The position numbers and the translations under genes are program-made. The notes under the pieces were generated by a model. The model did not search any database and was not told the DNA's origin. It saw only the letters and a program-made list of their open reading frames with translations. A stretch of DNA of 24,000 nucleotides, from the NCBI GenBank assembly GCA_047518265.1, contig JAKZRG010000091.1, positions 1 through 24,000 of the forward strand. Reading direction: 5' to 3'. The stretch comes from Oceanospirillum sp. Its GTDB lineage: Bacteria > Pseudomonadota > Gammaproteobacteria > Pseudomonadales > Halomonadaceae. Below are positions 527-13,529 of the stretch, piece after piece; the stretch's first letter is position 1, and every line of letters begins with the position of its first letter.

Positions 527-2305
527 GTGCAAGTAGAATTTAATCCATTTCGAGTGCCTTTAAAATCATCCAATCTGTCATCTGTACTGGAAAAAGTACT
601 GGGATTGGGGCCATTAATTCGCGGCTATGATGCTCGCCCCACGCATCAAGGGGAGAATATCAATGGCGCCCCTTTTCTGGAACATACTCTTAATGTTTTA
701 GACGTTGATATCGATGTCGAAAACGAAGAGTACTTAACCGATATTCCTAAAGAAGGTCCCGTTATTTTTGTTGCTAATCACCCTTATGGTGGCCTAGATG
801 GCGTCGCGATGACTCAGTTGTTATTAAAGCATCGCCCCGATTTAAAAGTGATGACCAATAAGATGCTGACTCGCATTCCTGAGCTTAGTGATCTTTTTAT
901 TGGGGTTGATGTGCTATCGGAAAATGCAGCAAAAGAAAATGCCAAGGGGATTCGTTTAATCTGCAAACACCTTAGCCAAGGCGGAGCACTGTTAATTTAT
1001 CCAGCAGGCACAGTTTCAGCTATTAATACTAAGAGTTGGCAGATTGAAGACAGTGAGTGGCATCCCCTCGTAGGTCGTTTGGCCCAGCGCTATAAGGCCA
1101 GTTGTATGCCCTTTTACATTGGTGGTCGTAATAGCAAACTTTTTTATGCCATGGGCTTAATTCACAAACGTTTGCGTACTCTAATGCTGCCAAGAGAGTT
1201 ATCGAATAAATCCGGCCATCGTATTCAGATCCATGCAGGCCCGATAATTACTCCAGATGAATTAAAGCATGCAGAAACGGATGAGGCTGCCACCCACTAC
1301 CTTAAAATGTCCAGCCAACTTATCGGTCGTAATCTGGATCAATCAGATGTACCACAAGCACCAGCAGTGGACAGTCAAACGATTACCAAACAACATAGTC
1401 AAGAAAACCTGTTACAAGACCTTGCGGGACTTGAAGAATATCGCTTATTAAGTAAAAACGGCTTTTCGGTTTACTGCGCGCCTTATGATCGACTCGGCAG
1501 TGTAATGCAGGAAATAGCCCATGCCAGAGAGGTGACCTTTAGAGCCGCTGGTGAAGGTACTGGACTAACATCAGACAGTGACCAGTTTGATCCCCACTAT
1601 CTGCATCTTTTCCTGTGGGATGATAAAGAGCAGCGTCTTGTGGGTGGCTATCGTATCGGGCAGAGCGATAAAATCATTAAAACGCTAGGCATAAAGGCGC
1701 TCTATAGTCGTTCCCTTTATCATTACGATGAATCCTTTATTCAACAGCTAGGCTCTGCGCTAGAGATGGGGCGGTCTTTCGTCACTCCAGAATACCAGCG
1801 TCACCCCCGTGCATTGGATCTGCTATGGCAAGGCATAGGAAACTATGTGGCCCAAAATCCCCAGTACCATACCTTATTTGGTTGCGTAAGTATTTCTCAG
1901 GAACATTCGGAATTGGCTCGTGCTTTTTTATCCGACTCTATGATGGAAGGCTTCCGCGCCAAACAGGAATATCTTAATAAAGTACGTCCTGTGGTGCCTC
2001 TAAAGGTTAAAGGTAAGGTTTGGACAACAGAAGCTCTGGCGTCCTTATCCAATATTGCAGTGATCAATAAGTTATTAGGTCGTTGTGATCCCGGTAAGTC
2101 TATCCCCATTCTTCTGCGACATTATTTGGCGCTGAATGGCCGTTTTGTCTGCTTTACGGTTAATGAGGGTTTTAATAATTCTCTGGATGGTTTGATCCTA
2201 GTCGATCTACGTGAAACGCCTAAAAAATATATCAAACGTTATTTGGGCAAAACGGGAAGCGAACAATTTTTACAACAATGGAACGCACATGAAAGCACTG
2301 ATTGA
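527..2305 (+). CDS. Two-domain acyltransferase: N-terminal PlsC/LPLAT-type domain plus C-terminal OlsB-type GNAT N-acyltransferase domain (OlsF-like amino-lipid synthase)
   Basis: 592 aa with a GTG start preceded by AGGTGG at 513-518. N-terminal motifs are VANHPYGGLDG (aa 82-92, H-x5-D acyltransferase block) and LLIYPAGTVS (FPEGT-like block). The C-terminal half carries LEMGRSFVTPEYQRHPRALDLLWQGI, typical of OlsB/hemolysin-like GNAT N-acyltransferases. Size and domain order match what I recall of OlsF. Confidence 0.75.
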   Translation: MQVEFNPFRVPLKSSNLSSVLEKVLGLGPLIRGYDARPTHQGENINGAPFLEHTLNVLDVDIDVENEEYLTDIPKEGPVIFVANHPYGGLDGVAMTQLLLKHRPDLKVMTNKMLTRIPELSDLFIGVDVLSENAAKENAKGIRLICKHLSQGGALLIYPAGTVSAINTKSWQIEDSEWHPLVGRLAQRYKASCMPFYIGGRNSKLFYAMGLIHKRLRTLMLPRELSNKSGHRIQIHAGPIITPDELKHAETDEAATHYLKMSSQLIGRNLDQSDVPQAPAVDSQTITKQHSQENLLQDLAGLEEYRLLSKNGFSVYCAPYDRLGSVMQEIAHAREVTFRAAGEGTGLTSDSDQFDPHYLHLFLWDDKEQRLVGGYRIGQSDKIIKTLGIKALYSRSLYHYDESFIQQLGSALEMGRSFVTPEYQRHPRALDLLWQGIGNYVAQNPQYHTLFGCVSISQEHSELARAFLSDSMMEGFRAKQEYLNKVRPVVPLKVKGKVWTTEALASLSNIAVINKLLGRCDPGKSIPILLRHYLALNGRFVCFTVNEGFNNSLDGLILVDLRETPKKYIKRYLGKTGSEQFLQQWNAHESTD

Positions 2306-2882
2306 AGCCACTATCGAAACTCTGGAACAAGTAAGATCCTTGATCACTCTATGTGCGGGTGATCAATATGATCAAGCCTCTGTTCACTCAATGTCCGGTG
2401 TGGGTCGTCATGTCCGCCATATTCTGGATCACTTTATTGCAGTCAAAGGTGGGGCTGAAAGTGGCCTCATCGATTACAACGTACGCCAGCGGGATTCAGA
2501 TATTGAATCCAATAGCCAATTGGCACTACAACGCACGGATGAGCTGATTGACTGGTTATCTGTACTTGGACGGGAAGATGTACAGCCTGGATCAAAGATT
2601 CAGGTTGTAACAGAGATTTCTGTTAACCAAACCAAGACTATGGCAATGGAGTCAAACTTAGACCGAGAGCTATGCTATCTCATCAATCACACGGTTCACC
2701 ACTTATCCTATGCTTCCTTGGTCGCTAAACAATTAGGTTTTACCGTGGATGACAGTATTGGACTCGCTCCAGGCACAGCAACCTATTTGCGCCAAACCGC
2801 AGAACAAGAGAGCCATCAGCCAGAGCAAGAAGATCATCGGCTCGCGAGAGAAGGTCATCCGCTTTTAGATCAGGCTGGATAA
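2289..2882 (+). CDS. DinB-fold (DinB/YfiT-like) putative metal-dependent enzyme
   Basis: I place the start at ATG 2289 (MKALIEATIETLEQV...) rather than the track's 2211. This overlaps the upstream stop by 17 nt, which suggests translational coupling. Histidine-rich motifs HVRHILDHF and INHTVHHLSYA fit the DinB-family metal-binding His triad on a four-helix-bundle pattern. Confidence 0.6.
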   Translation: MKALIEATIETLEQVRSLITLCAGDQYDQASVHSMSGVGRHVRHILDHFIAVKGGAESGLIDYNVRQRDSDIESNSQLALQRTDELIDWLSVLGREDVQPGSKIQVVTEISVNQTKTMAMESNLDRELCYLINHTVHHLSYASLVAKQLGFTVDDSIGLAPGTATYLRQTAEQESHQPEQEDHRLAREGHPLLDQAG

Positions 2883-2886
2883 TACC

Positions 2887-3777
2887 ATGTGTACTCTAAC
2901 CGCCTTCCACACAGTAGATGGTTTACTGATCACCATGAATCGAGATGAATCAAGATTAAGATTTGAGGCAGGTCTTAAACGTACTTTTGACTCTATAGAA
3001 CCTACCCAAACAAAGACAGATAACCAAACACTTACAAAACAAGCGGTAGAGTTGGCCTACCCTGTGGATGGTCAAGCTTTCGGCACCTGGATAGGATTAA
3101 ATAATCATGGTGTTGTTATGTGTTTACTCAATCGTTATCAGGATGCACATGTACCTAACGCTCTAACCCGTGGAAGCATTATTCCGACTGCACTAAAACA
3201 TGGTCAGGCCAACGTAATTTTTGAACATTTGGAGCAGCTGGATACCCTTTCATTTAATCCTTTTGATCTGCTTGTTTTTTCGGTTAAAGAATCCCGTCTG
3301 TTTAGCTGGGATGGCACCCATTACAATTTCGAAGCACTTCATCTGGAAACTGGTCGGATGTTTAGCTCTTCCTCTATTGACGCGGAAACAATTCTCCCCC
3401 ATCGACACAAGCTGTTTGATGCTTGGTTGCATCAAAATCAAGTTCGTTCCGATTCAAAATATAGCGATTTAAACAGTCAATCGAAGGTAAATGGAAAGCT
3501 GAATAGCAAACAGACCTGTAGCAATAAGCCCTGTAGCAAGAAGCCTTTATCAGAAACAGTCCTGCAGGGCTTCCATTTACAACAAGAAACGGGGCAAGAA
3601 AGTCGTAGCGTTTTTATGGCTCGGGATAAAAACCACACCAAGAGTATTAGCCAAATTACGCTGAGTAACTTACAGGGATCTCTTGATTATTATTCAGAAG
3701 AAAAGCTCCAGTGTGTTTTAAATGGTCGACAGAAGTTTAGGCCATCCGAGTCCGTGCAACTCTCGTTAATTAACTAA
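2887..3777 (+). CDS. NRDE-family (TANGO2-like) protein with a low-complexity insertion
   Basis: It starts MC (Met-Cys N-terminus conserved in the family) and has the literal NRDE motif at aa 18-21 (TMNRDESR) and GTWIGLNNHGVVMCLLN. The start is 4 nt after the DinB-like stop. A Ser/Lys/Asn-rich insert lies at about aa 185-225. Confidence 0.7.
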   Translation: MCTLTAFHTVDGLLITMNRDESRLRFEAGLKRTFDSIEPTQTKTDNQTLTKQAVELAYPVDGQAFGTWIGLNNHGVVMCLLNRYQDAHVPNALTRGSIIPTALKHGQANVIFEHLEQLDTLSFNPFDLLVFSVKESRLFSWDGTHYNFEALHLETGRMFSSSSIDAETILPHRHKLFDAWLHQNQVRSDSKYSDLNSQSKVNGKLNSKQTCSNKPCSKKPLSETVLQGFHLQQETGQESRSVFMARDKNHTKSISQITLSNLQGSLDYYSEEKLQCVLNGRQKFRPSESVQLSLIN

Positions 3778-3807
3778 TTAAAATATTTTTATATTGAGGT
3801 AATCCCT

Positions 3808-4257
3808 ATGAATCTGCTCAAACGTACATTGCTGATTTTCACTTGTCTGATTTTTTCTAATACGATCTTGGCCTCGGATGCAATCAATACAGGTTGGTTT
3901 AACAACACCGCTATTAAAGGCTATGACACTGTTGCTTATTTTACCGAAAACAAACCGGTAAAAGGCAGTAAAAAATTTCAGCACACATGGCAAGAAGCTA
4001 CCTGGCACTTTAGCAGTGAGGAACATTTGGCTCTGTTTAAAAATAACCCTGAGAAATATGCGCCGCAATATGGTGGTTACTGTGCTTATGCGGTAGCTCA
4101 AGGTGATTTAGCAGGTATAGATCCCTCTCAATTTACGGTTATGAATGAGAAGCTGTATTTAAACTACAATCGTGATATCCAGCAGAAATGGTTGAAAAAA
4201 CCTGTAGCCTATATCAATCAAGCAGATCAGAATTGGCCCAAAGTGCTTAACAATTAA
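3808..4257 (+). CDS. Secreted YHS-domain protein
   Basis: GAGGT SD 7 nt upstream. Signal peptide MNLLKRTLLIFTCLIFSNTILA. Family-typical blocks are AIKGYDTVAYFTENKPVKGS, WHFSSEEHLALFKNNPEKYAPQYGGYCAY and KLYLNYN. Confidence 0.75.
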   Translation: MNLLKRTLLIFTCLIFSNTILASDAINTGWFNNTAIKGYDTVAYFTENKPVKGSKKFQHTWQEATWHFSSEEHLALFKNNPEKYAPQYGGYCAYAVAQGDLAGIDPSQFTVMNEKLYLNYNRDIQQKWLKKPVAYINQADQNWPKVLNN

Positions 4258-4275
4258 GAGTTTGGAAAATAAGCC

Positions 4276-4686
4276 ATGATTGTTCAGCGATTATCTAGCC
4301 TAATGATCCCTCTGCTCGCAGGGATCATTTATGGCTCATGGGCCGCCTACAGTAACAGTGAATATGGCTTTGCTATTGCTTTACGAACGGGTATCGCTCA
4401 AGGCAGTTATGCTTTTTTCTCGACTTGGATTGTGACAGAAGCGGCTAAACGCACTTATTTTAAGTTCAGTGAAGACAGTAATAAAAGGAAAGGGATGATC
4501 GCAGGCTTTATTGCTAGCTTTGGACTTATGCTAAGCATTCCACTGATCATTCATACTCTGATTGAAACACCGGATATGTGGCAATCTATGGCGCCGGGAT
4601 TAATTTGGGGTAGTGTCTATATCCTTCTTTATCTTAGTCGATTGAGTCAGCAGGAAGGTGTTCAGGTTACTGAACTCTCTTCCTAA
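4276..4686 (+). CDS. Small integral membrane protein (about 4 TM), unknown function
   Basis: 136-aa ORF, 18 nt after the YHS gene, with four hydrophobic segments. I recognise no motif and the SD is weak. Confidence 0.5.
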   Translation: MIVQRLSSLMIPLLAGIIYGSWAAYSNSEYGFAIALRTGIAQGSYAFFSTWIVTEAAKRTYFKFSEDSNKRKGMIAGFIASFGLMLSIPLIIHTLIETPDMWQSMAPGLIWGSVYILLYLSRLSQQEGVQVTELSS

Positions 4687-4744
4687 ATCGCCTCCTTCCA
4701 GCCTCTCCTTCCAACTGATATATTATATCTGCTCTTTAACGGTG

Positions 4745-5146
4745 CTAATGGCTTGAGCTCTTAGCCTGCCAAGGCCAACGATAAGGTTTAAACACACTGG
4801 GGATGGCAAAAACAACATAGCTCAAAGCAAAAGCACCAGACCATTCGCTATTAAAGTAACCGTACTGATTTAAAGAAAACTGTGAGACCAAATACATCAG
4901 AACCCCGGCATAAAACACAATCAAGGCAAGATTACCTTTCCAGCTATCGATTCCCATTACAATAGAGGGTAAAGCCAATATCAAGCCGGTCAAAACCCCG
5001 CCTAGGGTGCTGAGCATATAGGGCAAACACTCTTGTAGCCCCCAAGCTAGATCAAACTGATAAACATCATAAACATACTTAATCACGGACATTAACAAGA
5101 GAAAAAGTGTTAACTGGATAATTTTTTGCAGTAAAACCGTGTTCAT
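4745..5146 (-). CDS. Small integral membrane protein (about 4 TM), unknown function
   Basis: 133-aa ORF with a GAAGGG SD upstream and four hydrophobic segments. It lies 21 nt downstream of the GNAT gene on the same strand. Confidence 0.5.
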   Translation of the reverse strand: MNTVLLQKIIQLTLFLLLMSVIKYVYDVYQFDLAWGLQECLPYMLSTLGGVLTGLILALPSIVMGIDSWKGNLALIVFYAGVLMYLVSQFSLNQYGYFNSEWSGAFALSYVVFAIPSVFKPYRWPWQAKSSSH

Positions 5147-5167
5147 AGTTACCCTTCTTGGTCTACC

Positions 5168-5641
5168 TCACCCTATGGATTTGGACAAGCGTAATGAAAA
5201 CTCACCAAAACCTAAGGAGTGATAAAAAGCCAATGCCTCTTTATTAAACGCCATCACATCTAAACGGACATCTATTGCTCCATGTTCCTTAGCAAATCCC
5301 TCAACTGCAGACATGAGTTGTTTTCCAATACCTTTACTTTTCCACGCTTGATTCACGACGATCGTAGCCACAGAACATCTTGGTCGAGAGATAATAAAAG
5401 GAACAGGAACATCAGATGAAACAGAAGCGGAAACGGCACCTACTATATGTCTATCTTGATCTTCTGCCACAAAAACAACAGAAGCTTCCCCTTCAATGAA
5501 CTTCCGCCAATAAGGATCATCCCGTTGGCTATCGTCAGGTTCTAAGAAATCATCAGGAAGATTTTTAAAGTGCTCTTTATTAATCTCATTCGACAATATA
5601 CATATCTCGGCTAAATCCCTTTCTGTCGCTATACGAATCAT
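5168..5641 (-). CDS. GNAT-family N-acetyltransferase
   Basis: ATG with an AAGGA SD 7 nt upstream. GNAT motif A is VVNQAWKSKGIGKQLMSAVEGFAKEHG, and the C-terminal AFNKEALAFYHSLGF is also typical. Confidence 0.75.
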   Translation of the reverse strand: MIRIATERDLAEICILSNEINKEHFKNLPDDFLEPDDSQRDDPYWRKFIEGEASVVFVAEDQDRHIVGAVSASVSSDVPVPFIISRPRCSVATIVVNQAWKSKGIGKQLMSAVEGFAKEHGAIDVRLDVMAFNKEALAFYHSLGFGEFSLRLSKSIG

Positions 5642-5662
5642 CTTTTCATCCTTTGAACATAA

Positions 5663-5685
5663 AGCCTATTTAAAAATAATAGGCT
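5663..5685 (-). terminator. Stem-loop downstream of the beta-barrel gene (weak intrinsic terminator or RNA stabiliser)
   Basis: AGCCTATT (5663-5670) pairs perfectly with AATAGGCT (5678-5685) around a 7-nt loop. On the minus strand it is followed by TTATGTT. Confidence 0.4.
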
Positions 5686-5700
5686 CAAAGATAGCCATAA

Positions 5701-6402
5701 TTAGCGGTATTTACGATCCCGATCTTTCAGTGAAACCAGAGTATCAAAATAATAATTTACTGAAATACTATAACTGTCATCATCATGATCCCAGTTGTAA
5801 CCAAAAGAAAATGCAGTTGAGTTTTTAAAATAATCAGGTTGATGGGAAACACGCAAACTATAACTATCTTTTGCGTCCATCCCTCCTGCAGATACAAGTA
5901 ATTTCGTATTATTTTGCCAATACCAAGCAATATCGGCAAAAGCCAAATGAGATGTTGAGGTGTTTTTTGAGTCAGCAAACAAGCGAGATGCACCAAAAGT
6001 GAAATCATTTAGATAGTATTGACCCGATAAGCTATATAGATAAGCCTCAAAGCTATCATCACCGTCAATCAGATTGTTCATATGTGCTTGATGATAACTC
6101 AGTCCAGCCTCTATTTTTCCTAAATCAAAGTCACGTAAGTAGATACTACTGGCCAGTTGGTAGTTGTCGATCTTAACATCTGCACCATCAACTTCTGTTC
6201 TACTGCCTCTTAAATAAAAAGAACTACCAACATACCGATAAACTGGAAGGTTAATGCCCCCTGAGATACCTAGCGTATCAGTATCTTGATCCCAACCATA
6301 AGATAAACCGACATTATAGTTTTTTTCTAATACACCGCCATTTTCCCCTGCAATGGCCAGTACAGGGGCAAACATTAATATTGCTAAACTCTTTTTTAAC
6401 AC
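5701..6402 (-). CDS. Putative outer-membrane beta-barrel protein
   Basis: GTG start with an AAGGA SD 6 nt upstream. Signal peptide (M)LKKSLAILMFAPVLAIA. Alternating aromatic/polar strands are rich in Y, G, S and D (GLSYGWDQD, SLSGQYYLNDFTFGA, YSISVNYYF). I do not recognise the family. Confidence 0.5.
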   Translation of the reverse strand: MLKKSLAILMFAPVLAIAGENGGVLEKNYNVGLSYGWDQDTDTLGISGGINLPVYRYVGSSFYLRGSRTEVDGADVKIDNYQLASSIYLRDFDLGKIEAGLSYHQAHMNNLIDGDDSFEAYLYSLSGQYYLNDFTFGASRLFADSKNTSTSHLAFADIAWYWQNNTKLLVSAGGMDAKDSYSLRVSHQPDYFKNSTAFSFGYNWDHDDDSYSISVNYYFDTLVSLKDRDRKYR

Positions 6403-6456
6403 AGTAATTCCTTTTAATTTTATAATCTGCCAATTTTCTGATCAATAAGGTAATGT

Positions 6457-6981
6457 TTAGAGCCCGATAGCATACACTGTTAGGTTTCGTATATCCTTGT
6501 TTCCATTGTAATAAATAGGGATAGTTTTAACGTGTTGGGCCCCAAAACGTTTGGCTACCGCTATACTGGGTAGGTTGTCTTCCAGGCACCGAAATTCGAC
6601 ACTACGTACCCCGTAATGATCTCTCAAATAGGGCATAATACTTTCTATGATACCGGAGACTACGCCCCGCCCCTGCACTGAGCTTGAAATCCAGTAGCCT
6701 AGCTCTGCGGTATTGCCCTTTATGGATTTGATGCCAAAAAGCCCGCTGACTTGTCCTTGATACAAAATTTTAAACCACTGGGCTCCAGATAATCCGCTCT
6801 GTAATTTCTTTTGCAAATATTCTTTCGTAGACGATTGATCGTAAACACTATCTACCCAGGATAAATATTCACCAAGAAAGTCTCGGTTCTCTTCAATAAG
6901 TACATAAAAAGCAACATCGTCTGACAATTCCAGTTTAACAATTTCGATTTTCTCTGAGATTTCCAAGCTAGAGATGCTCAC
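6457..6981 (-). CDS. GNAT-family N-acetyltransferase (RimJ/RimL-like)
   Basis: GTG start. ELGYWISSSVQGRGVVSGIIESI (motif A, Q-G-R-G) and LEDNLPSIAVAKRFGAQ are typical of the Acetyltransf_3/RimJ-like group. Confidence 0.7.
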   Translation of the reverse strand: MSISSLEISEKIEIVKLELSDDVAFYVLIEENRDFLGEYLSWVDSVYDQSSTKEYLQKKLQSGLSGAQWFKILYQGQVSGLFGIKSIKGNTAELGYWISSSVQGRGVVSGIIESIMPYLRDHYGVRSVEFRCLEDNLPSIAVAKRFGAQHVKTIPIYYNGNKDIRNLTVYAIGL

Positions 6982-7127
6982 AATAAATTACCACTTCTTA
7001 CTCATTTTTACAGTTTACAATGAATATCAGTCTTAATATAACATATTGATTAATATATAAATTTCCAGACATATGATCCATTAGTTGATACAATTCAACT
7101 TCTTACTTACTCTTAGAAAAAGAATTT

Positions 7128-7685
7128 ATGTCCTGGTTTGAAGCATCACTGATCTGCACTTGTGTATTTGCTCTATTTAGTATTGTCTACTCTACCCTAA
7201 AAACAGGCATGTCGCCGATGCCTAGCTCGGCTAAAGTACGAAAGGAAGTGCTCGATTTACTCTCAAAGCAAAACCCAGCATCTGGGCAAGCCATTATTGA
7301 TGTAGGTTCTGGCTGGGGCAACTTAATAATCCCGATGGCTCGCAGGTTCCCACAAACTCAAGTGATTGGTTATGAGCTTTCATTATTACCATGGTTAGCG
7401 TGTTTGCTAATCAAAAAAATATTACGATTGAATAATTTAAAACTTTATAGACAGGACTTTCTTAAAGCTGATATTCCTCAGGATAGTATTTTGACCTGTT
7501 ACCTTCACCCAAGAGGAATGAAAAAATTAAAGCGTTACTTGCAACAGCGTGAACAAGCAGCCAGTACCGTGATCAGTATCTATTTTTCTTTACCTGGTTG
7601 TGATGAAACCACGTTTAAAGAAACCCGTGTTATACGGATTAAAGATCTGTACCAAACACCGGTATACCTATATCAGCAGTCGTAG
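7128..7685 (+). CDS. Class I SAM-dependent methyltransferase with an N-terminal TM helix
   Basis: Motif I is IIDVGSGWGNLIIPMA, followed by VIGYELS (acidic post-I residue). The N-terminus WFEASLICTCVFALFSIVYS is hydrophobic. Confidence 0.65.
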   Translation: MSWFEASLICTCVFALFSIVYSTLKTGMSPMPSSAKVRKEVLDLLSKQNPASGQAIIDVGSGWGNLIIPMARRFPQTQVIGYELSLLPWLACLLIKKILRLNNLKLYRQDFLKADIPQDSILTCYLHPRGMKKLKRYLQQREQAASTVISIYFSLPGCDETTFKETRVIRIKDLYQTPVYLYQQS

Positions 7686-7707
7686 CCATTTCTAAAACTC
7701 ATCAAAC

Positions 7708-7740
7708 TTCTAATCCTAAGGTTTTGCCTAAGGATTAGAA
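7708..7740. terminator. Bidirectional stem-loop terminator between convergent genes
   Basis: TTCTAATCCTAAGG (7708-7721) pairs with CCTAAGGATTAGAA (7727-7740) at 13 of 14 positions around the loop TTTTG. It lies between stop 7685 (+) and stop 7760 (-). Confidence 0.7.
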
Positions 7741-7759
7741 GCAAATTATCTCATTGAAA

Positions 7760-8947
7760 CTATTTGAACATCTGCTGCATTATCTCCATCGTTTCTTCGA
7801 AATATGGATTCCAGCTTAGCCGAGCATGTACCTTGTTCTCTTCACGATAGCCCCAACCTGAGTACCAAACATCTGCTCCATTACGGCAAATCTTCTCTTG
7901 CGCTTCCTCTTGGCCATTGCCACACATGCGATGACGACCTTCAATACCATAATGGGCATTATTCGGTTTATATAATGCACTCATATGAGAGCCTGTACTG
8001 ATACGATATTCTGGCAGTGCCATGGAATAGGCCGTTAGGCCGGAGACTTGCGGCTTACTTTCTCCAAACCAAACCAGCTTATTTTCAGAATGAATAAAAC
8101 GTTCTTGATAAAGATCTATTGCTGATTGAGTGTTGATTACCGTATCACCCTCACTCATTACCATAAACACTGGGATATTGAGAGATGTACCTGACAACTT
8201 ATCACGGACTAAAGTTGATGTTTCGTAATAAACCGCCGCACCATTCATGGCAAGGGATTCAAATTTTACGATATTGTCTTCTTGATCTTCGTCCGCCCAA
8301 TCCACCAAATATCGAGCATATGGAGCAAAACGCACAACTCCACTTTGAGGCTCAAAGGCAGGAGAAAACAGTAATAGGCCATCTATCTCTGGGTTATCAA
8401 CTGCTTCAATGGTGACAAGATTAGCACCTGTGGAATATCCACCTAACCAGATATCATCATAGTCCTTTGATAACAACGCAGTATGATGACGAACAATCGC
8501 GGTCCAATCTTTAAGTTCGGGCAGCATTAAGTCAGCAGGTTTACTGCCATGACCGGGTAATAGAATCACCCGTACCAGAAACCCTTGATCCACCAACTCT
8601 TGCGCTACATCTGTGAAAGAAAAGGGAGAGTCACTTAAACCGTGTACCAACAAAGCGGCTTTTCCATTGGGCTGATCAGGTTTAAGTTCAAAAGGACTGT
8701 TAAGCTGAACTTCCTGCTCAGGGTTTTGACTCAGATACATACGATTCTTACGCAACCATTTTTGATTATCTTGAATGTATTGCTGAAAGTCATTTTGTAA
8801 ATAATTAGCCATGTTTTCTGATGGCTGTTTTTCTGGTTGCACGGGTTGATTACTGCATGCAGTGGCCAGTACAGCGAAGAGAGAAACCGCCAACGTCAAA
8901 CCTTTTGTTGTGTGCAACTTTCTATTCGAACCTATTTTCAAAGTCAT
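7760..8947 (-). CDS. Alpha/beta-hydrolase, probable lipoprotein
   Basis: The N-terminus ...LAVSLFAVLATAC-SNQ is a signal peptide with a lipobox-like ATAC. LLVHGLSDSPFSF is the oxyanion HG block and WLGGYSTGANL is the G-x-S-x-G nucleophile elbow. The C-terminal extension is Cys-containing. Confidence 0.7.
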   Translation of the reverse strand: MTLKIGSNRKLHTTKGLTLAVSLFAVLATACSNQPVQPEKQPSENMANYLQNDFQQYIQDNQKWLRKNRMYLSQNPEQEVQLNSPFELKPDQPNGKAALLVHGLSDSPFSFTDVAQELVDQGFLVRVILLPGHGSKPADLMLPELKDWTAIVRHHTALLSKDYDDIWLGGYSTGANLVTIEAVDNPEIDGLLLFSPAFEPQSGVVRFAPYARYLVDWADEDQEDNIVKFESLAMNGAAVYYETSTLVRDKLSGTSLNIPVFMVMSEGDTVINTQSAIDLYQERFIHSENKLVWFGESKPQVSGLTAYSMALPEYRISTGSHMSALYKPNNAHYGIEGRHRMCGNGQEEAQEKICRNGADVWYSGWGYREENKVHARLSWNPYFEETMEIMQQMFK

Positions 8948-9180: not shown

Positions 9181-9939
9181 TTACTGCAGGAGTTCATCAA
9201 GATATTTTTGGATTTTTCCTTTCTCACGTAACTGCTTCATCCCCTTATTAAACTGTTCTGTCAGGTGGGGGCCTTTACCATTTTTCTTGGAAAAGAGAAC
9301 ATAGCTGTACTGCTCTTGTAATGCTTTTGAATGATGGGTAAAAAGAGTAACGTCACCTTTGAAGTGTTTTTTGAGGGTGTAATAGCCAATCTCTTTTATC
9401 TGAGGGAATAGGTCTATTCGACCCGCTTTTAATTTTTTGTAATTTAACTCTCCTGAAACGGCCTTAGCCACGGACATTTTCTCATCTTTTATGGCCCGAT
9501 CCATTTCAGCACCATAGGTAAAACCATTAATAACTCCGATGGTATAGGGTTTTAAATCTGCTAATGTATTCCAGTTGAAAGCATTAGATTTTAAGTGGAA
9601 AAATACTTGCTCTTCTTTAATTACCGCATCACTGAAGTGAAAATGCTGCAGACGTTCATCCGTTTTGAACCAAACAAGAGTGCCTTCATAATTTTTGCCC
9701 TCTTGAGCTTCTAAGTAAGCACGCTTCCAGGGAAAATAACTAATTTCTACTTGATAGCCTACTGCCTCAAAGGCTTCTGTTACGATCCTTGCTGCCACAC
9801 CGCCATGGGGAAGTGTTTCCGAAATATAGGGTGCATATTCACCCGTAGTCAGTCGAACAATTTTCTCCTGAGCAAAAACAACGTGGTGATTACTACTAAA
9901 GATGGTCAGCATATACACCAGAAAAATCCTATATATCAT
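9181..9939 (-). CDS. Periplasmic substrate-binding protein, family 3 (amino-acid/polar type), orphan with no adjacent permease or ATPase
   Basis: I prefer ATG 9939 (GAGG SD 8 nt upstream; MIYRIFLVYMLTIFSS signal) over the track's TTG 9969. LTTGEYAPYISE, YFPWKRAY and GRIDLFPQ are typical of SBP_bac_3 proteins. Confidence 0.75.
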   Translation of the reverse strand: MIYRIFLVYMLTIFSSNHHVVFAQEKIVRLTTGEYAPYISETLPHGGVAARIVTEAFEAVGYQVEISYFPWKRAYLEAQEGKNYEGTLVWFKTDERLQHFHFSDAVIKEEQVFFHLKSNAFNWNTLADLKPYTIGVINGFTYGAEMDRAIKDEKMSVAKAVSGELNYKKLKAGRIDLFPQIKEIGYYTLKKHFKGDVTLFTHHSKALQEQYSYVLFSKKNGKGPHLTEQFNKGMKQLREKGKIQKYLDELLQ

Positions 9940-10094
9940 GATCACAACCTCTGCACTCGATGACGACAACTAACGACACCAAAAATTATAGTGTACGTCA
10001 TAGCTGTTCGCGTTTGAGTTTTAAGATTTTATCCTCCACAACCTCATTTTTAATCTATCTTGCATAGTAGGCTTTTGTTTATTTAAGCGATGGC

Positions 10095-13000
10095 ATGACA
10101 CATATAAATAGAATATTTATCGTTATATTTGCCCTACTCATAACCCTCATATCAAAGGGGATTTCAGCTGATGATGGAGATATTCACATTGCTGTCATTA
10201 GCCCTAAGGAAGTAGAGCCTGTGGGGATAAAGGGCTTTCGGCTTTATATGGAAGAAATTAATTGGCAAACACCTAGGGGGACAAAGATTACACTAGATCA
10301 TTACTTTGATAACAATAACAAAGCTCAAGCCATTTCTGTTGCTAAGCAAATTGCAAAAGATAACCGAGCAGCTCTTGTTATTGGTCACAACTACAGCTCA
10401 ACGTCATCAGTCGCTGGAAAAATTTATGCTAAGCACGGTATTCCAGCGATTAGCTACAGTGCAACAAATCCAAGTGTCACTAAAGATAACCCTTGGTATT
10501 TCCGCACGATCTTCAATGATTCTAGTCAAGGCAGTTTTTTAGCGTACTACGCTATTAAAACGCTGAACTATAACCAACTCACCGTGATATATGAGCCGGA
10601 TAAATACGGTTCCTTTCTTGCCCAAGTATTTCAAGAAAGTGCCTATGAGTATGGGGCTAAACAGGTAGAAAGTTTTGAGCTTGATATGCAAGCAGAGCCA
10701 GAAGATCGCTATAAGGCAATCCTAGATAAAATTGCCAAAAATAAAGCTCAGTCAGGTTTAATTTTTATGGCAACACATGCAGATGAAGGTATCGCTTTGG
10801 TTAAAAAACTCAGAGATGAGGGGATAAAAAATCCGATTATGGGCCCAGATTCATTTTACTCAACAAGCTTTATCACAGGCTTTAATCAATTCCCTCTTGA
10901 ACAACATAGTCCAGGCCACTATAGCAACGGCATCTTTGTCTCTGCTCCTATTGTATTTGATGCCGCCAATGCGGAGGCTCAAAGCTTGAAGCACAACTAC
11001 TTTAAAACCTATGGAGAACATGCAGATTGGGCATCTGCTTATGGTTACGATACTGCCAAGGTAGTGGAATCAATTATTGATATCAGCCGATCTGGAAAAA
11101 AATCAAATACTCTCTCTGCCTCTACGAGCACTCCCGAAGATCAATCAGTTCTACAAGCGACCCTAACAAGACAACGTGTTGCGATACGAGAAGCATTAGC
11201 AAGCATTAATAGCCCGAAAAATGCAATTAAGGGAGCTACTGGACTCAATTATTTTAATGAAGATGGGGATGCTATCAAGCCGATTTTTATCGCTGTTTTA
11301 CATGGTAAGAGTGCTGTTTCGGGTCTAATACAGTATACCGATGTGCCTAATATTGAAGAGGTGTATCAACTTGATGAGCAGATAGATAGTGGACACATAA
11401 TCAAAATGACCGATCGTTTTATGTATAAAAAATCGGTCATTTTCACAGGAGTTAAAATCCATCACATTGGTAAAATAAACCAACAAAAAAATACCAGCGA
11501 GTTGGATTTCACATTATGGTTTCGCTATAGAGGTGACTTTAATCCTAATCAGATCGAGTTCACTAATAGTGTTGACCCTTTAACCTTGGCAGAACCCGAG
11601 ATAAAAACAGAATCAAACAATATTAGCTATCAAGCATTTAGAGTTAAAGGTGTATTCCGTAACAACTTTATGGATGATATAGAACGCAGGGTCCAAGTCA
11701 GTATCGGTTTTGCATTGCGCAACACAGAAGTTGACCGCAACAGCCTGCTTTACATTAGCGACATTATGGGACTTGGACTAACAGGTGATATGGAACTAAT
11801 CGATTATGTAAAAAAGCAGAAATTAGCGGATGAAATTTCAGGTTGGCAAGTGCAAAACGCCAGCATTTTTGAGCGTAGTATTAATATCGATAGCCTAGGT
11901 TTACCACAATATATAAACCTTACCGATGCGACCGTGCCTTACTCCCAATATCACTACCTGATAGATCTAAAACAAACCGGATTTCGTTTAAGTGATCTCA
12001 TTGATCAAGGAAAAACAGGTCTAATCGCAGCACTATGTTTCACTATTTTATCTAGCATTTATCTATCCCGATTTCTATTTCTGAGACGTTTCAAATCTAA
12101 TCTGATTCTCTTACGTTTACGTTGGTTAATCATCACCTTATCTTGGGTGTTATTACTCAGTACCAGTGAAACATGGTTAAGCTACAATCTTTTCTCTGAT
12201 ATTGATGTGCATTTTCAAAAATGGATATTACATGCTTACGATCTCAGCTGGTGGATTATTCCAGCCATGTTATTGGTGCACGCCGCTGATGCTTTTATTT
12301 GGAAAACACTTCAGGCTAAAACAGGTCGCCCTGTACCCGGTGTTATCCAAAGCTTATTAGCCTTTATTATTTATACACTGGCTCTCTTTGCAATTGTGGC
12401 TTTTGTTTATGATCAAAAGCTAACCGGCTTGCTAGCAACATCAGGTCTATTAGCCATGATTATTGGCTTAGCGATACAGATGAATCTATCTAATATATTC
12501 TCGGGGATAGCATTAAACCTAGAGCAGCCATTTAGGGTTGGAGATTGGGTTAAAATTGGTGAACACGAAGGACAAGTTATCGATGTTAATTGGCGTGCCA
12601 CACGATTATTGACCAGAGTTAAGCACGAAATAAGTATCCCCAATACCCCTGCGGCTGATACAGCCATAATTAATTACAGTAATAATCAGGGAGCAACCCG
12701 TCAAAGCTTAATGGTTGGAGTGCACCCAGTACACCCGATTGAAAAGGTAAAACCTCTGTTAATTGCAGCGGCATTCAAGCACCCCAATGTTTTAAGTACA
12801 CCTAGACCTCATTGTACCTTTGCAGGTATTAAAGAAGGTGTCGCTCAGTATCGTCTGATCTTCTCTTACACAGATTACTCGCTTACCTTTCAGGTTGTTG
12901 ATCAAATTTGGGGACAGATGATCCAGAACTTTAAGAAAGCAGGTATCAACTATGTACCGCCAATGCAACGTATAGAGATGAACAAAGCTAAGCCGACACC

Positions 13001-13529
13001 ATTTTTACACCGTGAAAATAGTGATTTTATTAGTCAAGCAGCGATCTTTTCAGGTATGCCAGAAATATTTAAACAAGATCTGAGTAGCAAATTGATTGAA
13101 CGGCACTATGACGTTGGGGAGTTTGTACTTAAAAAATCAACCATGGAGGATTCACTGTTTATTATCCAGTCTGGAGTTGCAACGATTTTAAAGGAAAATG
13201 AAAAGGGTATCTCTTTAGAACAACAGCGCTTAGGCATAGATGATTTGATCAATACGGAAATACTATACCGTGATGGGTCACGAGACTATTCTGTTCGAGC
13301 TGTGACTACCTTGAGGATTTTGGAAATCCAAAAAGAAGTATTAATGGAGCTTTTCCAGAAATACCCAGAGTATCAGCCAATTTTTGACCACAATATTCAA
13401 ATTCTAGTGCAAGAGCTTAAAGACAACGAAGGTAGCCCACCTATTCAGGATTACTCTAAAATGGGGAATCACTTTGCCTGGATGGAGACAAAAAATGTCG
13501 CACCAAGCAGTAAAGCGAAGAAAAATTAA
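10095..13529 (+). CDS. Multidomain MscS-family channel: signal peptide, type-1 periplasmic binding domain, beta-rich periplasmic module, 5 TM, MscS pore/beta domain and a C-terminal cNMP-binding-like domain
   Basis: 1144 aa. The signal is MTHINRIFIVIFALLITLISKGISA. PBP1/LivK-like blocks are at aa ~27-400 (ALVIGHNYSSTSSVAGKIYAKHGIPAISYSATNPSVT, WYFRTIFNDSSQG, LTVIYEPDKYG). Five hydrophobic helices span aa ~642-808. The MscS signature is SGLLAMIIGLAIQMNLSNIFSGIALNLEQPFRVGDWVKIGEHEGQVIDVNWRATRLLT...ISIPN (aa ~782-850). The cNMP-like domain at aa ~983-1100 includes IFSGMPEIF...YDVGEFVLKKSTMEDSLFIIQSGVATI...VRAVT. Confidence 0.8.
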   Translation: MTHINRIFIVIFALLITLISKGISADDGDIHIAVISPKEVEPVGIKGFRLYMEEINWQTPRGTKITLDHYFDNNNKAQAISVAKQIAKDNRAALVIGHNYSSTSSVAGKIYAKHGIPAISYSATNPSVTKDNPWYFRTIFNDSSQGSFLAYYAIKTLNYNQLTVIYEPDKYGSFLAQVFQESAYEYGAKQVESFELDMQAEPEDRYKAILDKIAKNKAQSGLIFMATHADEGIALVKKLRDEGIKNPIMGPDSFYSTSFITGFNQFPLEQHSPGHYSNGIFVSAPIVFDAANAEAQSLKHNYFKTYGEHADWASAYGYDTAKVVESIIDISRSGKKSNTLSASTSTPEDQSVLQATLTRQRVAIREALASINSPKNAIKGATGLNYFNEDGDAIKPIFIAVLHGKSAVSGLIQYTDVPNIEEVYQLDEQIDSGHIIKMTDRFMYKKSVIFTGVKIHHIGKINQQKNTSELDFTLWFRYRGDFNPNQIEFTNSVDPLTLAEPEIKTESNNISYQAFRVKGVFRNNFMDDIERRVQVSIGFALRNTEVDRNSLLYISDIMGLGLTGDMELIDYVKKQKLADEISGWQVQNASIFERSINIDSLGLPQYINLTDATVPYSQYHYLIDLKQTGFRLSDLIDQGKTGLIAALCFTILSSIYLSRFLFLRRFKSNLILLRLRWLIITLSWVLLLSTSETWLSYNLFSDIDVHFQKWILHAYDLSWWIIPAMLLVHAADAFIWKTLQAKTGRPVPGVIQSLLAFIIYTLALFAIVAFVYDQKLTGLLATSGLLAMIIGLAIQMNLSNIFSGIALNLEQPFRVGDWVKIGEHEGQVIDVNWRATRLLTRVKHEISIPNTPAADTAIINYSNNQGATRQSLMVGVHPVHPIEKVKPLLIAAAFKHPNVLSTPRPHCTFAGIKEGVAQYRLIFSYTDYSLTFQVVDQIWGQMIQNFKKAGINYVPPMQRIEMNKAKPTPFLHRENSDFISQAAIFSGMPEIFKQDLSSKLIERHYDVGEFVLKKSTMEDSLFIIQSGVATILKENEKGISLEQQRLGIDDLINTEILYRDGSRDYSVRAVTTLRILEIQKEVLMELFQKYPEYQPIFDHNIQILVQELKDNEGSPPIQDYSKMGNHFAWMETKNVAPSSKAKKN

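Follow-up and report, generated by a model that had tools for sequence, protein, structure and literature searches.

Gene and domain layout at the locus

The stretch of DNA analysed here, referred to as the window, covers 24,000 nucleotides of contig JAKZRG010000091.1 from an Oceanospirillum sp. assembly (GCA_047518265.1) and carries a gene for a membrane protein in which a receptor head known from pLGICs (pentameric ligand-gated ion channels) is joined to an MscS-type channel of the bCNG type. The gene is a stop-free open reading frame (ORF) of 1144 codons with an ATG start, located at positions 10095..13529 on the forward strand (+). An uninterrupted frame of this length had been described in the original prediction, a short note made from the sequence alone, and it is present and intact; an identical protein (P0001) is held in the public protein collection. 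The three domains named in that note, namely a type-1 periplasmic binding protein (PBP1), an MscS channel and, at the C-terminus, a cyclic-nucleotide-binding-like (cNMP) domain, were each recovered by Pfam above the curated cut-offs against which domain calls were judged. Searches against NCBIfam and PDB sequences were in agreement, with PDB matches to LivK/LivJ, MscK, MscM, YnaI, MscS and the cyclic-nucleotide-binding domain of PKG.

The polypeptide opens with a signal-peptide-like N-terminus (aa 1-25, MTHINRIFIVIFALLITLISKGISA then DD; 10095..10169, +). This feature, also proposed in the earlier note, is predicted from a hydropathy peak at aa 7-25 and an AlphaFold2 (AF2) helix at aa 2-22 that is followed by a low-confidence linker. 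The next segment is a PBP1 domain of the LivK/ANF-receptor Venus flytrap type (aa 28-425; 10176..11369, +), assigned by Pfam, the LivK match and Foldseek. It is succeeded by a pLGIC/AChBP-type extracellular domain (ECD) of the Neur_chan_LBD fold, from which the Pro-loop coupling motif has been lost (aa 430-636; 11382..12002, +), as identified by phmmer, AF2 and Foldseek. Two extra transmembrane (TM) helices, TMa (aa 638-661) and TMb (aa 670-702), evident from both hydropathy and AF2, join the ECD to the MscS core (12006..12200, +). The core, delimited by alignments to PDB sequences, consists of TM1-TM2-TM3 with TM3 as the pore helix (aa 705-810; 12207..12524, +) and leads into the cytoplasmic beta domain and the alpha-beta (vestibule) domain of MscS (aa 818-950; 12546..12944, +; Pfam, alignments and AF2). 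A cyclic-nucleotide-binding domain (CNBD) fold follows (aa 975-1112; 13017..13430, +; Pfam cNMP_binding and the PKG CNB match), and a tail with pLDDT <50 (aa 1113-1144), together with the stop codon, completes the gene (13431..13529, +). The AF2 model of the full-length 1144-aa protein has a pLDDT of 79.8.

Hydropathy and AF2 agree on an N-terminal signal-like helix and five TM helices (638-661, 670-702, 705-743, 749-771 and 776-810), the number and topology that the original prediction had put forward. Because of this arrangement, both N-terminal modules, PBP1 and ECD, are periplasmic and the CNBD is cytoplasmic. We regard the domain architecture as practically certain: the protein consists of the PBP1-ECD head of a PBP1-pLGIC and an entire bCNG-type MscS channel.

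The second periplasmic module is a pLGIC-type extracellular domain

The most unusual feature of the protein is the beta-rich region between the flytrap and the membrane. Its existence had been noted from the sequence and was borne out, whereas its identity had been left blank; we identify aa 430-636 as a ligand-binding ECD of the pLGIC superfamily, because of a homology bridge through PBP1-pLGIC proteins and because of structure prediction combined with Foldseek searches. Six homology-search matches (P0067, P0070, P0072, P0074, P0075 and P0077), all with PF02932, the TM domain of neurotransmitter-gated channels, are confined to query residues 1 to ~630, and in phmmer searches aa 430-642 alone match the stretch immediately preceding the PF02932 TM domain of PBP1-pLGIC proteins (6e-15 to 2e-23). 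In an alignment of 32 family ECD segments (A1), the pLGIC-type members display a Y/F-P-F-D-x-Q Pro-loop, a pre-M1 arginine and an M1 start KNLLP, and five of them match Pfam PF02931 (Neur_chan_LBD) when all 32 are considered, at 9.3e-5 for the best. For the query segment itself, Pfam gave no PF02931 match, and the ECD sequence profile run against PDB sequences returned nothing meaningful (best E 0.25, unrelated). AF2 applied to alignment A1 yielded a confidently folded domain with ten main strands (pLDDT 86.2, pTM 0.80). Comparison of this model with the PDB by Foldseek produced 1101 matches at E<=1e-3 (best E 5.7e-10), the top 50 of which are all ECDs of AChBP, nicotinic acetylcholine receptors (nAChR) or GABA-A receptors, at a probability of 1.00 and TM-scores of 0.54-0.60.

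The query hence possesses the extracellular beta-sandwich ligand-binding domain that is characteristic of pLGICs. No PF02932 match to the four-helix M1-M4 domain was found in it with Pfam, and the sequence past the ECD aligns with bCNG-type MscS channels instead. According to motif statistics over 76 pLGIC-type and 132 MscS-fused ECDs, the residues of the fold core (W475/F476/R477/F521/S617) vary hardly or not at all in either branch. The Pro-loop proline is present in 76/76 members of the pLGIC branch versus 19/132 of the MscS-fused branch, the Pro-loop aspartate in 75/76 versus 10/132, and the pre-M1 arginine in 75/76 versus 19/132, and a new conserved G-x-H occupies the Pro-loop site in most MscS-fused proteins. 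Because the pLGIC coupling motifs were dropped and a new consensus is seen in the fused branch, the pattern points to an ECD-membrane interface that has been rewired rather than simply decayed. In the query, the Pro-loop region reads FMDDIERRVQV and the pre-M1 position is occupied by Q; both pLGIC hallmarks are lacking.

The channel half

Searches with aa 640-1112 retrieved many ~500-aa proteins with MS_channel and cNMP_binding domains only. One of these, a 503-aa protein from Rhizobium tumorigenes, aligns collinearly through its residues 10-455 with query residues 644-1091 (E 5e-43, 27 % identity). The alignment begins at TMa and takes in all five TM helices as well as the MscS core and the CNBD; TMa and TMb correspond to the first two helices of the stand-alone protein. 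Judged from such alignments, the C-terminal half corresponds to a bCNG-type channel in its entirety. The MscS TM3/beta-domain signature recognized in the earlier note corresponds to a strong match to MS_channel_2nd (PF00924; aa 798-862, E 1.3e-18, 67 bits versus a cut-off of 20.2). The MS_channel_3rd match at aa 880-952 is sub-threshold in Pfam (E 0.15); the vestibule domain is covered by phmmer alignments to MscS/MscM that run through MscS residues ~277-287, and the AF2 secondary structure is consistent with an alpha-beta vestibule. The best PDB match to the channel part is MscK (7uw5, 5.5e-16).

TM3 and the beta domain form the most conserved part of the family, with a mean pairwise identity of 56.5 %. 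M788 and L792, which we take to occupy the positions of the gate leucines L105 and L109 of E. coli MscS (M796 presumably corresponding to the G113 kink position), are nearly invariant across the family and, in the MscS-type alignment, constitute the predicted hydrophobic gate. The fact that the pore is the best-conserved part argues for a conducting channel, and a heptameric assembly would be expected by analogy with other MscS cores.

Putative ligand-binding sites of the flytrap and of the cyclic-nucleotide-binding domain

Within the PBP1 domain, Pfam detected Peripla_BP_6 (aa 44-335; E 5.3e-25, 89 bits versus a cut-off of 31.7) and ANF_receptor (aa 52-395; E 3.2e-18), and the LivK structure 1usg matched at 1e-19. 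The top Foldseek matches of the domain, taken from the full-length model, are of the LivK/LivJ type, with target TM-scores of 0.72-0.83 to LivK/LivJ and of at most 0.89, to 4mlc; Pfam and Foldseek results alike correspond to a two-lobe Venus-flytrap fold. Being covalently tethered to the channel, this is not a free binding protein of the kind that docks onto ABC importers. In the alignment to 1usg, LivK residues S79, T102, Y150, Y202 and E226 are matched by query residues S101, T124, Y171, H228 and D252. Leaving H228 aside, every one of them is retained by 72-82 % of the MscS-fused relatives and by 75-93 % of the pLGIC relatives. In the LivJ/LivK structures, the alpha-amino and alpha-carboxylate of the bound amino acid are held by the counterparts of S101, T124, Y171 and D252, which may play the same part here. 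Because these LivK-type positions are largely preserved, an amino acid or a close analogue appears the likeliest PBP1 ligand.

At the other end of the protein, the CNBD is supported by a match to cNMP_binding (PF00027; aa 1003-1090, E 1.7e-9, 38 bits versus a cut-off of 27.5) and by a match of the PKG CNB domain to the query C-terminus at 1.8e-6. Its phosphate-binding cassette lies at aa ~1051-1066 (13245..13292). Cassette statistics over 78 relatives revealed G in 71, E in 62, R in 65, S/T in 53 and A in 51, giving the family consensus FFGEMALLTGEPR[ST]A; a relative with a canonical CNBD, P0010, has the cassette FFGEMALLTGEPRTA. By comparison, the query carries N1053, T1054, R1063, D1064 and Y1065, that is, four of the five key positions are replaced, and the FGE...R[ST]A pattern of cAMP/cGMP-binding cassettes is absent from it. 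The degeneracy suspected in the original prediction is thereby substantiated. Asparagine at the glycine position is found in seven sequences, including the query and its close relatives P0002-P0007, the last from Oceanospirillum sanctuarii, and the cassette arginine is not kept even among these close relatives. Cyclic-nucleotide control was probably ancestral and widespread in the family and, because the cassette is degenerate, this input has probably been lost in the query, where, as in the rest of the Oceanospirillum-type subclade, the CNBD probably serves as a structural or autoinhibitory module only.

Distribution and origin of the fused family

The domain matches of the query lie far beyond chance. 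The same domain order is present in more than 75 other proteins (27-64 % identity). Local profile classification of 224 retrieved proteins assigned 77 to the PBP1-ECD-MscS-CNBD, 53 to the PBP1-ECD-MscS and 74 to the PBP1-ECD-pLGIC type; at least 130 distinct relatives thus bear the PBP1-ECD head on an MscS channel. The ECD profile matched 1953 representatives among 1.84 billion 50 %-identity clusters, 585 of them at E<=1e-30. Additional domains occur among the PBP1-pLGIC relatives: some proteins of ~1200 aa (among P0064, P0066, P0071 and P0080-P0082) contain SBP_bac_8/SBP_bac_1 (PF13416/PF01547), one contains a cadherin domain (PF00028), and forms of ~870 aa contain TPR repeats (PF07719).

The closest named relatives, at 55-59 % identity, are from Oceanospirillum. 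Genomic loci were collected by scanning one-genome-per-species contigs; a single-protein query of these contigs gave 20 pattern matches, none of which passed tblastn, and the loci were obtained with the family alignment as query. Full-length loci were found in Oceanospirillum, Beggiatoaceae (Thiomargarita, Parabeggiatoa, Thioploca, Marithrix), Desulfobacterales, Leptospiraceae, Magnetococcales, Rhodospirillales, Anaerolineae, Cloacimonetes, Opitutae and others, which belong to several phyla, and host genomes commonly encode two to three paralogues. According to the record titles (P0240, P0246, P0254, P0309 and L001-L079), the carrier taxa are rich in large, filamentous, multicellular or magnetotactic bacteria, such as Thiomargarita, Parabeggiatoa, Thioploca, Desulfonema, Ca. 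Electrothrix, Ca. Magnetoglobus multicellularis, Magnetococcales and Leptospiraceae.

The original prediction had named separate genes at orthologous loci as a sign that the fusion might be artificial. A single stop-free frame encodes the protein in 64 of the 65 long genome loci, and one clade indeed has its parts in two adjacent genes. Taken together, the fusion is real, recurrent and old. In a rough neighbour-joining tree of the PBP1+ECD part, built without support values, nearly all MscS-fused proteins fall into a single clade that lies within the PBP1-pLGICs (one, P0050, clusters with a pLGIC subclade), and CNBD-less forms are scattered within the fused clade. This topology suggests one fusion followed by several losses of the CNBD. 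As judged from homology, PBP1 and ECD were taken over together from bacterial PBP1-pLGIC receptors. Mean pairwise identities are 0.40 for PBP1, 0.35 for ECD, 0.57 for TM3+beta and 0.34 for CNBD, and every module appears to be under constraint.

The split clade is exemplified by a metagenome-assembled genome of Magnetococcales (L015) with two ORFs at 2469..4619 and 4632..6062 (716 and 476 aa), and by a 14.5-kb JGI contig in which the 710-aa P0062 is followed, 19 nt on and in another frame, by the 477-aa P0238. The start point of the second gene is common to five diverged clusters (L080-L082 are also of the split type), and a conserved AAGG ribosome-binding-like motif lies upstream of it. The first product comprises the signal peptide, PBP1, ECD and TMa (710-716 aa), and the second TMb, TM1, TM2, TM3, the vestibule and the CNBD (475-483 aa), the split site being the cytoplasmic loop between TMa and TMb. 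Because the cut falls there and not at the domain-fusion boundary, the split form is best read as a minority, secondary fission. It implies that the head with TMa would cooperate with the channel by packing against it non-covalently, which would be in keeping with TMa belonging to the gating paddle. Directly downstream of the split pair, the JGI contig carries a gene (4505..7141) for an 878-aa protein with Lactamase_B/Apyc1-like and cNMP_binding domains, which might be a cyclic-nucleotide phosphodiesterase; an SBP_bac_3 gene comes next (7188..8306). The 878-aa neighbour hints at a local cNMP-signalling context in the split lineage.

Some apparent variants did not withstand scrutiny. Two PBP1-less ECD-MscS forms (P0182, P0185) were rejected as N-terminally truncated ORFs, and P0225, considered as a second split variant within the query subclade, was rejected as a truncated tandem paralogue upstream of a full-length one. 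P0225 (471 aa, TMa to CNBD) is 69 % identical to the C-terminal half of the query; it is preceded by a stop codon and by sequence that is not ECD, and the arrangement looks like a tandem partial duplication. In the marine metagenome contigs L083 (1..5325) and L084 (1..5293), the truncated paralogue directly precedes an intact paralogue of 1117 aa.

Genomic neighbourhood

Genes surrounding the channel gene in the window include an orphan SBP_bac_3 gene, glutaredoxin, an AraC/cupin regulator and GNAT acetyltransferases, among others. When all window neighbours were searched by tblastn against 79 loci, no matches were obtained, and in a Pfam survey of 150 flanking ORFs from ~45 loci no family occurred more than three times (Guanylate_cyc, cNMP_binding and Cache three times each). 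Membership of a conserved operon was therefore rejected, there being no recurring neighbour families. ABC_tran was found in two of the 150 flanking ORFs, and no ABC transporter gene flanks the channel gene in the window. The SBP_bac_3 gene, encoding a type-II periplasmic binding protein (PBP-II), lies divergently upstream of the channel gene (9181..9969, -) with no ABC genes nearby, and this pairing is not conserved at other loci; PBP-II genes adjoining bacterial pLGIC genes were noted by Tasneem et al. (PMC549065).

Scans for promoters and terminators around the channel gene did not rise above shuffled expectation, and no clear Shine-Dalgarno sequence precedes its ATG. An antisense ORF of 84 aa inside the gene (12413..12667, -) had no supporting evidence and was taken as chance. 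Elsewhere in the window, a 592-aa ORF (527..2305, +) encodes a PlsC-type acyltransferase joined to an Acetyltransf_5 GNAT domain, a combination that presumably resembles the bifunctional OlsF-type ornithine-lipid synthases. It overlaps a DinB-family ORF (2211..2882, +) by 95 nt, and one of the two start codons is probably mis-assigned.

Proposed mechanism and alternatives

The reading that we prefer, with a probability of roughly 55-60 %, is that the gene product acts as a chimeric inner-membrane channel subunit, forming a ligand-modulated MscS-type channel with periplasmic input. Binding of a small periplasmic ligand, for which an amino acid or one of its close analogues is the likeliest candidate, would close the PBP1 flytrap. 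The ECD, whose last strand is connected by ~10 residues to the opening TM helix of the bCNG-type channel, would pass this movement on to TMa and the outer paddle of TM helices. TM1/TM2 would be biased in their tilt as a result and, through it, the hydrophobic gate in TM3 (M788/L792) in its opening, such that the MscS-type pore becomes ligand-gated or ligand-tuned instead of purely tension-gated. In most family members, the canonical CNBD would add a cytoplasmic cAMP/cGMP input. Dual periplasmic and cytoplasmic gating, as envisaged in the original prediction, is accordingly plausible for most of the family, with its canonical cassettes, but unlikely for the query itself. Whereas the identities, order, topology and origin of the domains, their conservation and the recurrence of the fusion come from the data themselves, we infer the class of ligand, the route of coupling, the oligomeric state, ion conduction and a physiological role in chemosensing coupled to ion or solute flux. 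A bolder proposition, which we hold only tentatively and consider somewhat improbable, is that the pLGIC-type ECD, a domain otherwise known only in five-fold rings on its own 4-TM pore or as soluble AChBP, has been recruited for the gating of an MscS-type pore with seven-fold symmetry, in a natural swap between unrelated channel superfamilies. The ECD would then act as a non-pentameric (heptameric) ring, or subunit by subunit on the TM paddle.

Several considerations weigh against these proposals. All pLGIC ECDs and AChBPs known to us are pentameric, whereas MscS-type channels are heptameric; by analogy, a symmetry mismatch between the two halves may arise, and a pentamer is not expected here. 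The Pro-loop region of the query and its subclade departs even from the G-x-H consensus of the family, the degenerate cassette probably leaves this protein without one of the two proposed inputs, and no conserved neighbour gene indicates a pathway. The ligand class is deduced from only four aligned residues, and function is inferred rather than experimental in every family member. Moreover, the published bCNG channels were for the most part unable to rescue E. coli under osmotic downshock, and none has a solved structure (PMC13591265); even for the parent channel, gating is not understood.

The most serious competitor, which we nonetheless deem unlikely, is an osmotic safety valve that is gated by tension, like MscS, YnaI and MscK, and in which the head only tunes the threshold, the kinetics or the environment of the pore. 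The completeness of the MscS core and its status as the best-conserved part of the family are in line with such a valve, and the large periplasmic domains of E. coli MscK and MscM modulate, rather than replace, tension gating (PMC13591265). Conditioning of MscK by external K+ offers a model for the role of the head, and the title of Malcolm 2012, as cited in PMC13591265, attributes tension gating to Ss-bCNGa. A valve of this kind sits less well with the retention of two small-molecule receptor folds together in all ~130 relatives, with the conservation of ligand-contact residues and with the lack of downshock rescue by most tested bCNG channels (PMC13591265); the presence of two to three paralogues in many genomes is commoner for sensors than for safety valves.

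The opposite extreme would be a non-conducting receptor or tethered binding protein, with the MscS part as an oligomeric scaffold and PBP1 either feeding a transporter or signalling without ion flux. Database names such as 'ABC transporter substrate-binding protein' and 'branched-chain amino acid transport system substrate-binding protein' might be cited in its favour, but these are automatic transfers from the PBP1 domain. The scarcity of ABC genes at the surveyed loci and in the window, the conservation of the pore helix and beta domain and the near-invariance of M788/L792 all speak against it, and we consider it very improbable. Finally, the ORF could be an artefact, namely an assembly chimera or a frameshift joining a binding-protein gene to a channel gene, for which the only encouragement is the clade with two adjacent genes (L015; P0062 and P0238). 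This explanation is effectively refuted by the single stop-free frame at 64 of the 65 long loci from many phyla and by at least 130 independent proteins with the same order; in addition, the minority split lies between TMa and TMb rather than at the fusion boundary, and composition is even along the whole gene.

Implications

The ECD of pLGICs is usually treated as inseparable from its own pentameric four-TM pore. Engineered chimeras between pLGIC members work, but we know of no natural case of a pLGIC ECD on another pore. Here, evolution moved a PBP1-ECD head onto a complete MscS/bCNG-type channel, and the combination has been kept across several phyla. The interest of the family lies in the crossing of two channel superfamilies of different symmetry, and it bears on whether a pLGIC ECD can assemble in a symmetry other than five, whether ligand-driven movement of the paddle, not bilayer tension, can open MscS-type pores, and what bCNG-type channels respond to. 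Fused versus split genes, canonical versus degenerate CNBDs, and forms with or without the CNBD provide natural comparison sets for coupling, and the family might serve as a modular scaffold for engineered ligand-gated large-pore channels. If the ECD indeed gates the MscS-type pore, these proteins would represent a hitherto overlooked class of large-pore bacterial channels with chemical gating. The hosts of this class are predominantly bacteria of large, filamentous, multicellular or magnetotactic type (Beggiatoaceae, Desulfonema, cable bacteria, Ca. Magnetoglobus, Magnetococcales and Leptospiraceae), in which external amino-acid cues and internal cAMP/cGMP could then be coupled to fast ion or solute fluxes.

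Such an architecture is hidden by current database labels, under which relatives appear as 'ABC transporter substrate-binding protein' or 'potassium-dependent mechanosensitive channel' and which the domain identities presented here correct. The claim that no channel with the full architecture has been characterized held in the searchable literature: no paper on a PBP1-ECD-MscS-CNBD protein was found, although Malcolm & Maurer 2012, which defines 15 MscS subfamilies and may list a PBP-fused one, lies outside that coverage. A 2015 paper from the Malcolm & Maurer group refers to 'ligand binding domains' only in general terms, the pLGIC evolution paper of Jaiteh et al. mentions neither MscS nor 'mechanosensitive', and a full-text search combining MscS with Cys-loop/pLGIC returned nothing relevant. 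A 2026 review of MscS-like channels describes bCNG channels as lacking a structure and a clear role and does not mention PBP or pLGIC fusions (PMC13591265). We thus found a bCNG-type MscS channel with a pLGIC receptor head to be undescribed in the searchable literature.

Comparison with known systems

Among systems in which a flytrap is coupled to a membrane module, eukaryotic ionotropic glutamate receptors (iGluR), metabotropic glutamate receptors (mGluR), the calcium-sensing receptor (CaSR) and taste receptors share with the query a LivK-type PBP1 outside the membrane, and the ectodomains of mGluR and CaSR are listed by Foldseek. Their membrane modules are, however, unrelated, and no pLGIC ECD is located between flytrap and membrane. 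MscK and MscM, in turn, likewise combine an MscS core with a large periplasmic N-terminal extension, but they have 11 TM helices versus five in the query, and the periplasmic domain, ring-forming in both and predicted in MscK to consist of two helical bundles, contrasts with the two receptor folds found here (PMC13591265). No homology to MscK/MscM was found outside the core. The comparison with MscK drawn in the original prediction thus stands as regards a large periplasmic head on an MscS core, but is an analogy only, 11 TM helices and a helical domain being set against five TM helices, a PBP1 and a beta-sandwich.

The relationship to the bCNG channels (Caldwell 2010 and Malcolm 2012, as cited in PMC13591265) is closer. 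As far as that review relates, they have the same MscS pore helix, vestibule and C-terminal CNBD, and the query belongs with them by its PF00027 match and its collinearity with stand-alone MscS+CNBD proteins of ~500 aa. Most relatives of the query share the canonical FGE...R[ST]A cassette, whereas the query has lost four of five positions. No periplasmic receptor head has been reported for bCNG channels (PMC13591265); the query adds 640 periplasmic residues.

From the receptor side, the ECD has the same ten-strand beta-sandwich as AChBP and the ECDs of GLIC, ELIC, DeCLIC, nAChR and GABA-A receptors (TM-scores of 0.54-0.60 over ~205 columns), with which it shares only 6-9 % identity, and it is mounted on a presumably heptameric pore. 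In DeCLIC, the N-terminal domain is a pair of jelly-rolls rather than a PBP1 and was, according to a 2025 paper, the only accessory pLGIC domain characterized so far (PMC12664993). The nearest kin of the head are the bacterial PBP-I-fused pLGICs described by Tasneem et al. 2005, in which the ligand-binding domain and four-TM core are preserved and in connection with which MscS is never mentioned (PMC549065). The N-terminal 640 residues of the query, from signal peptide through PBP1 to ECD, are homologous to these proteins (28-32 % identity over 50-55 % of the query; P0064-P0077). However, the PBP-I-pLGICs retain the Y-P-F-D-x-Q Pro-loop and the pre-M1 arginine, both lost in the query, and possess an M1-M4 pore (PF02932), in place of which the query has an MscS-type channel.

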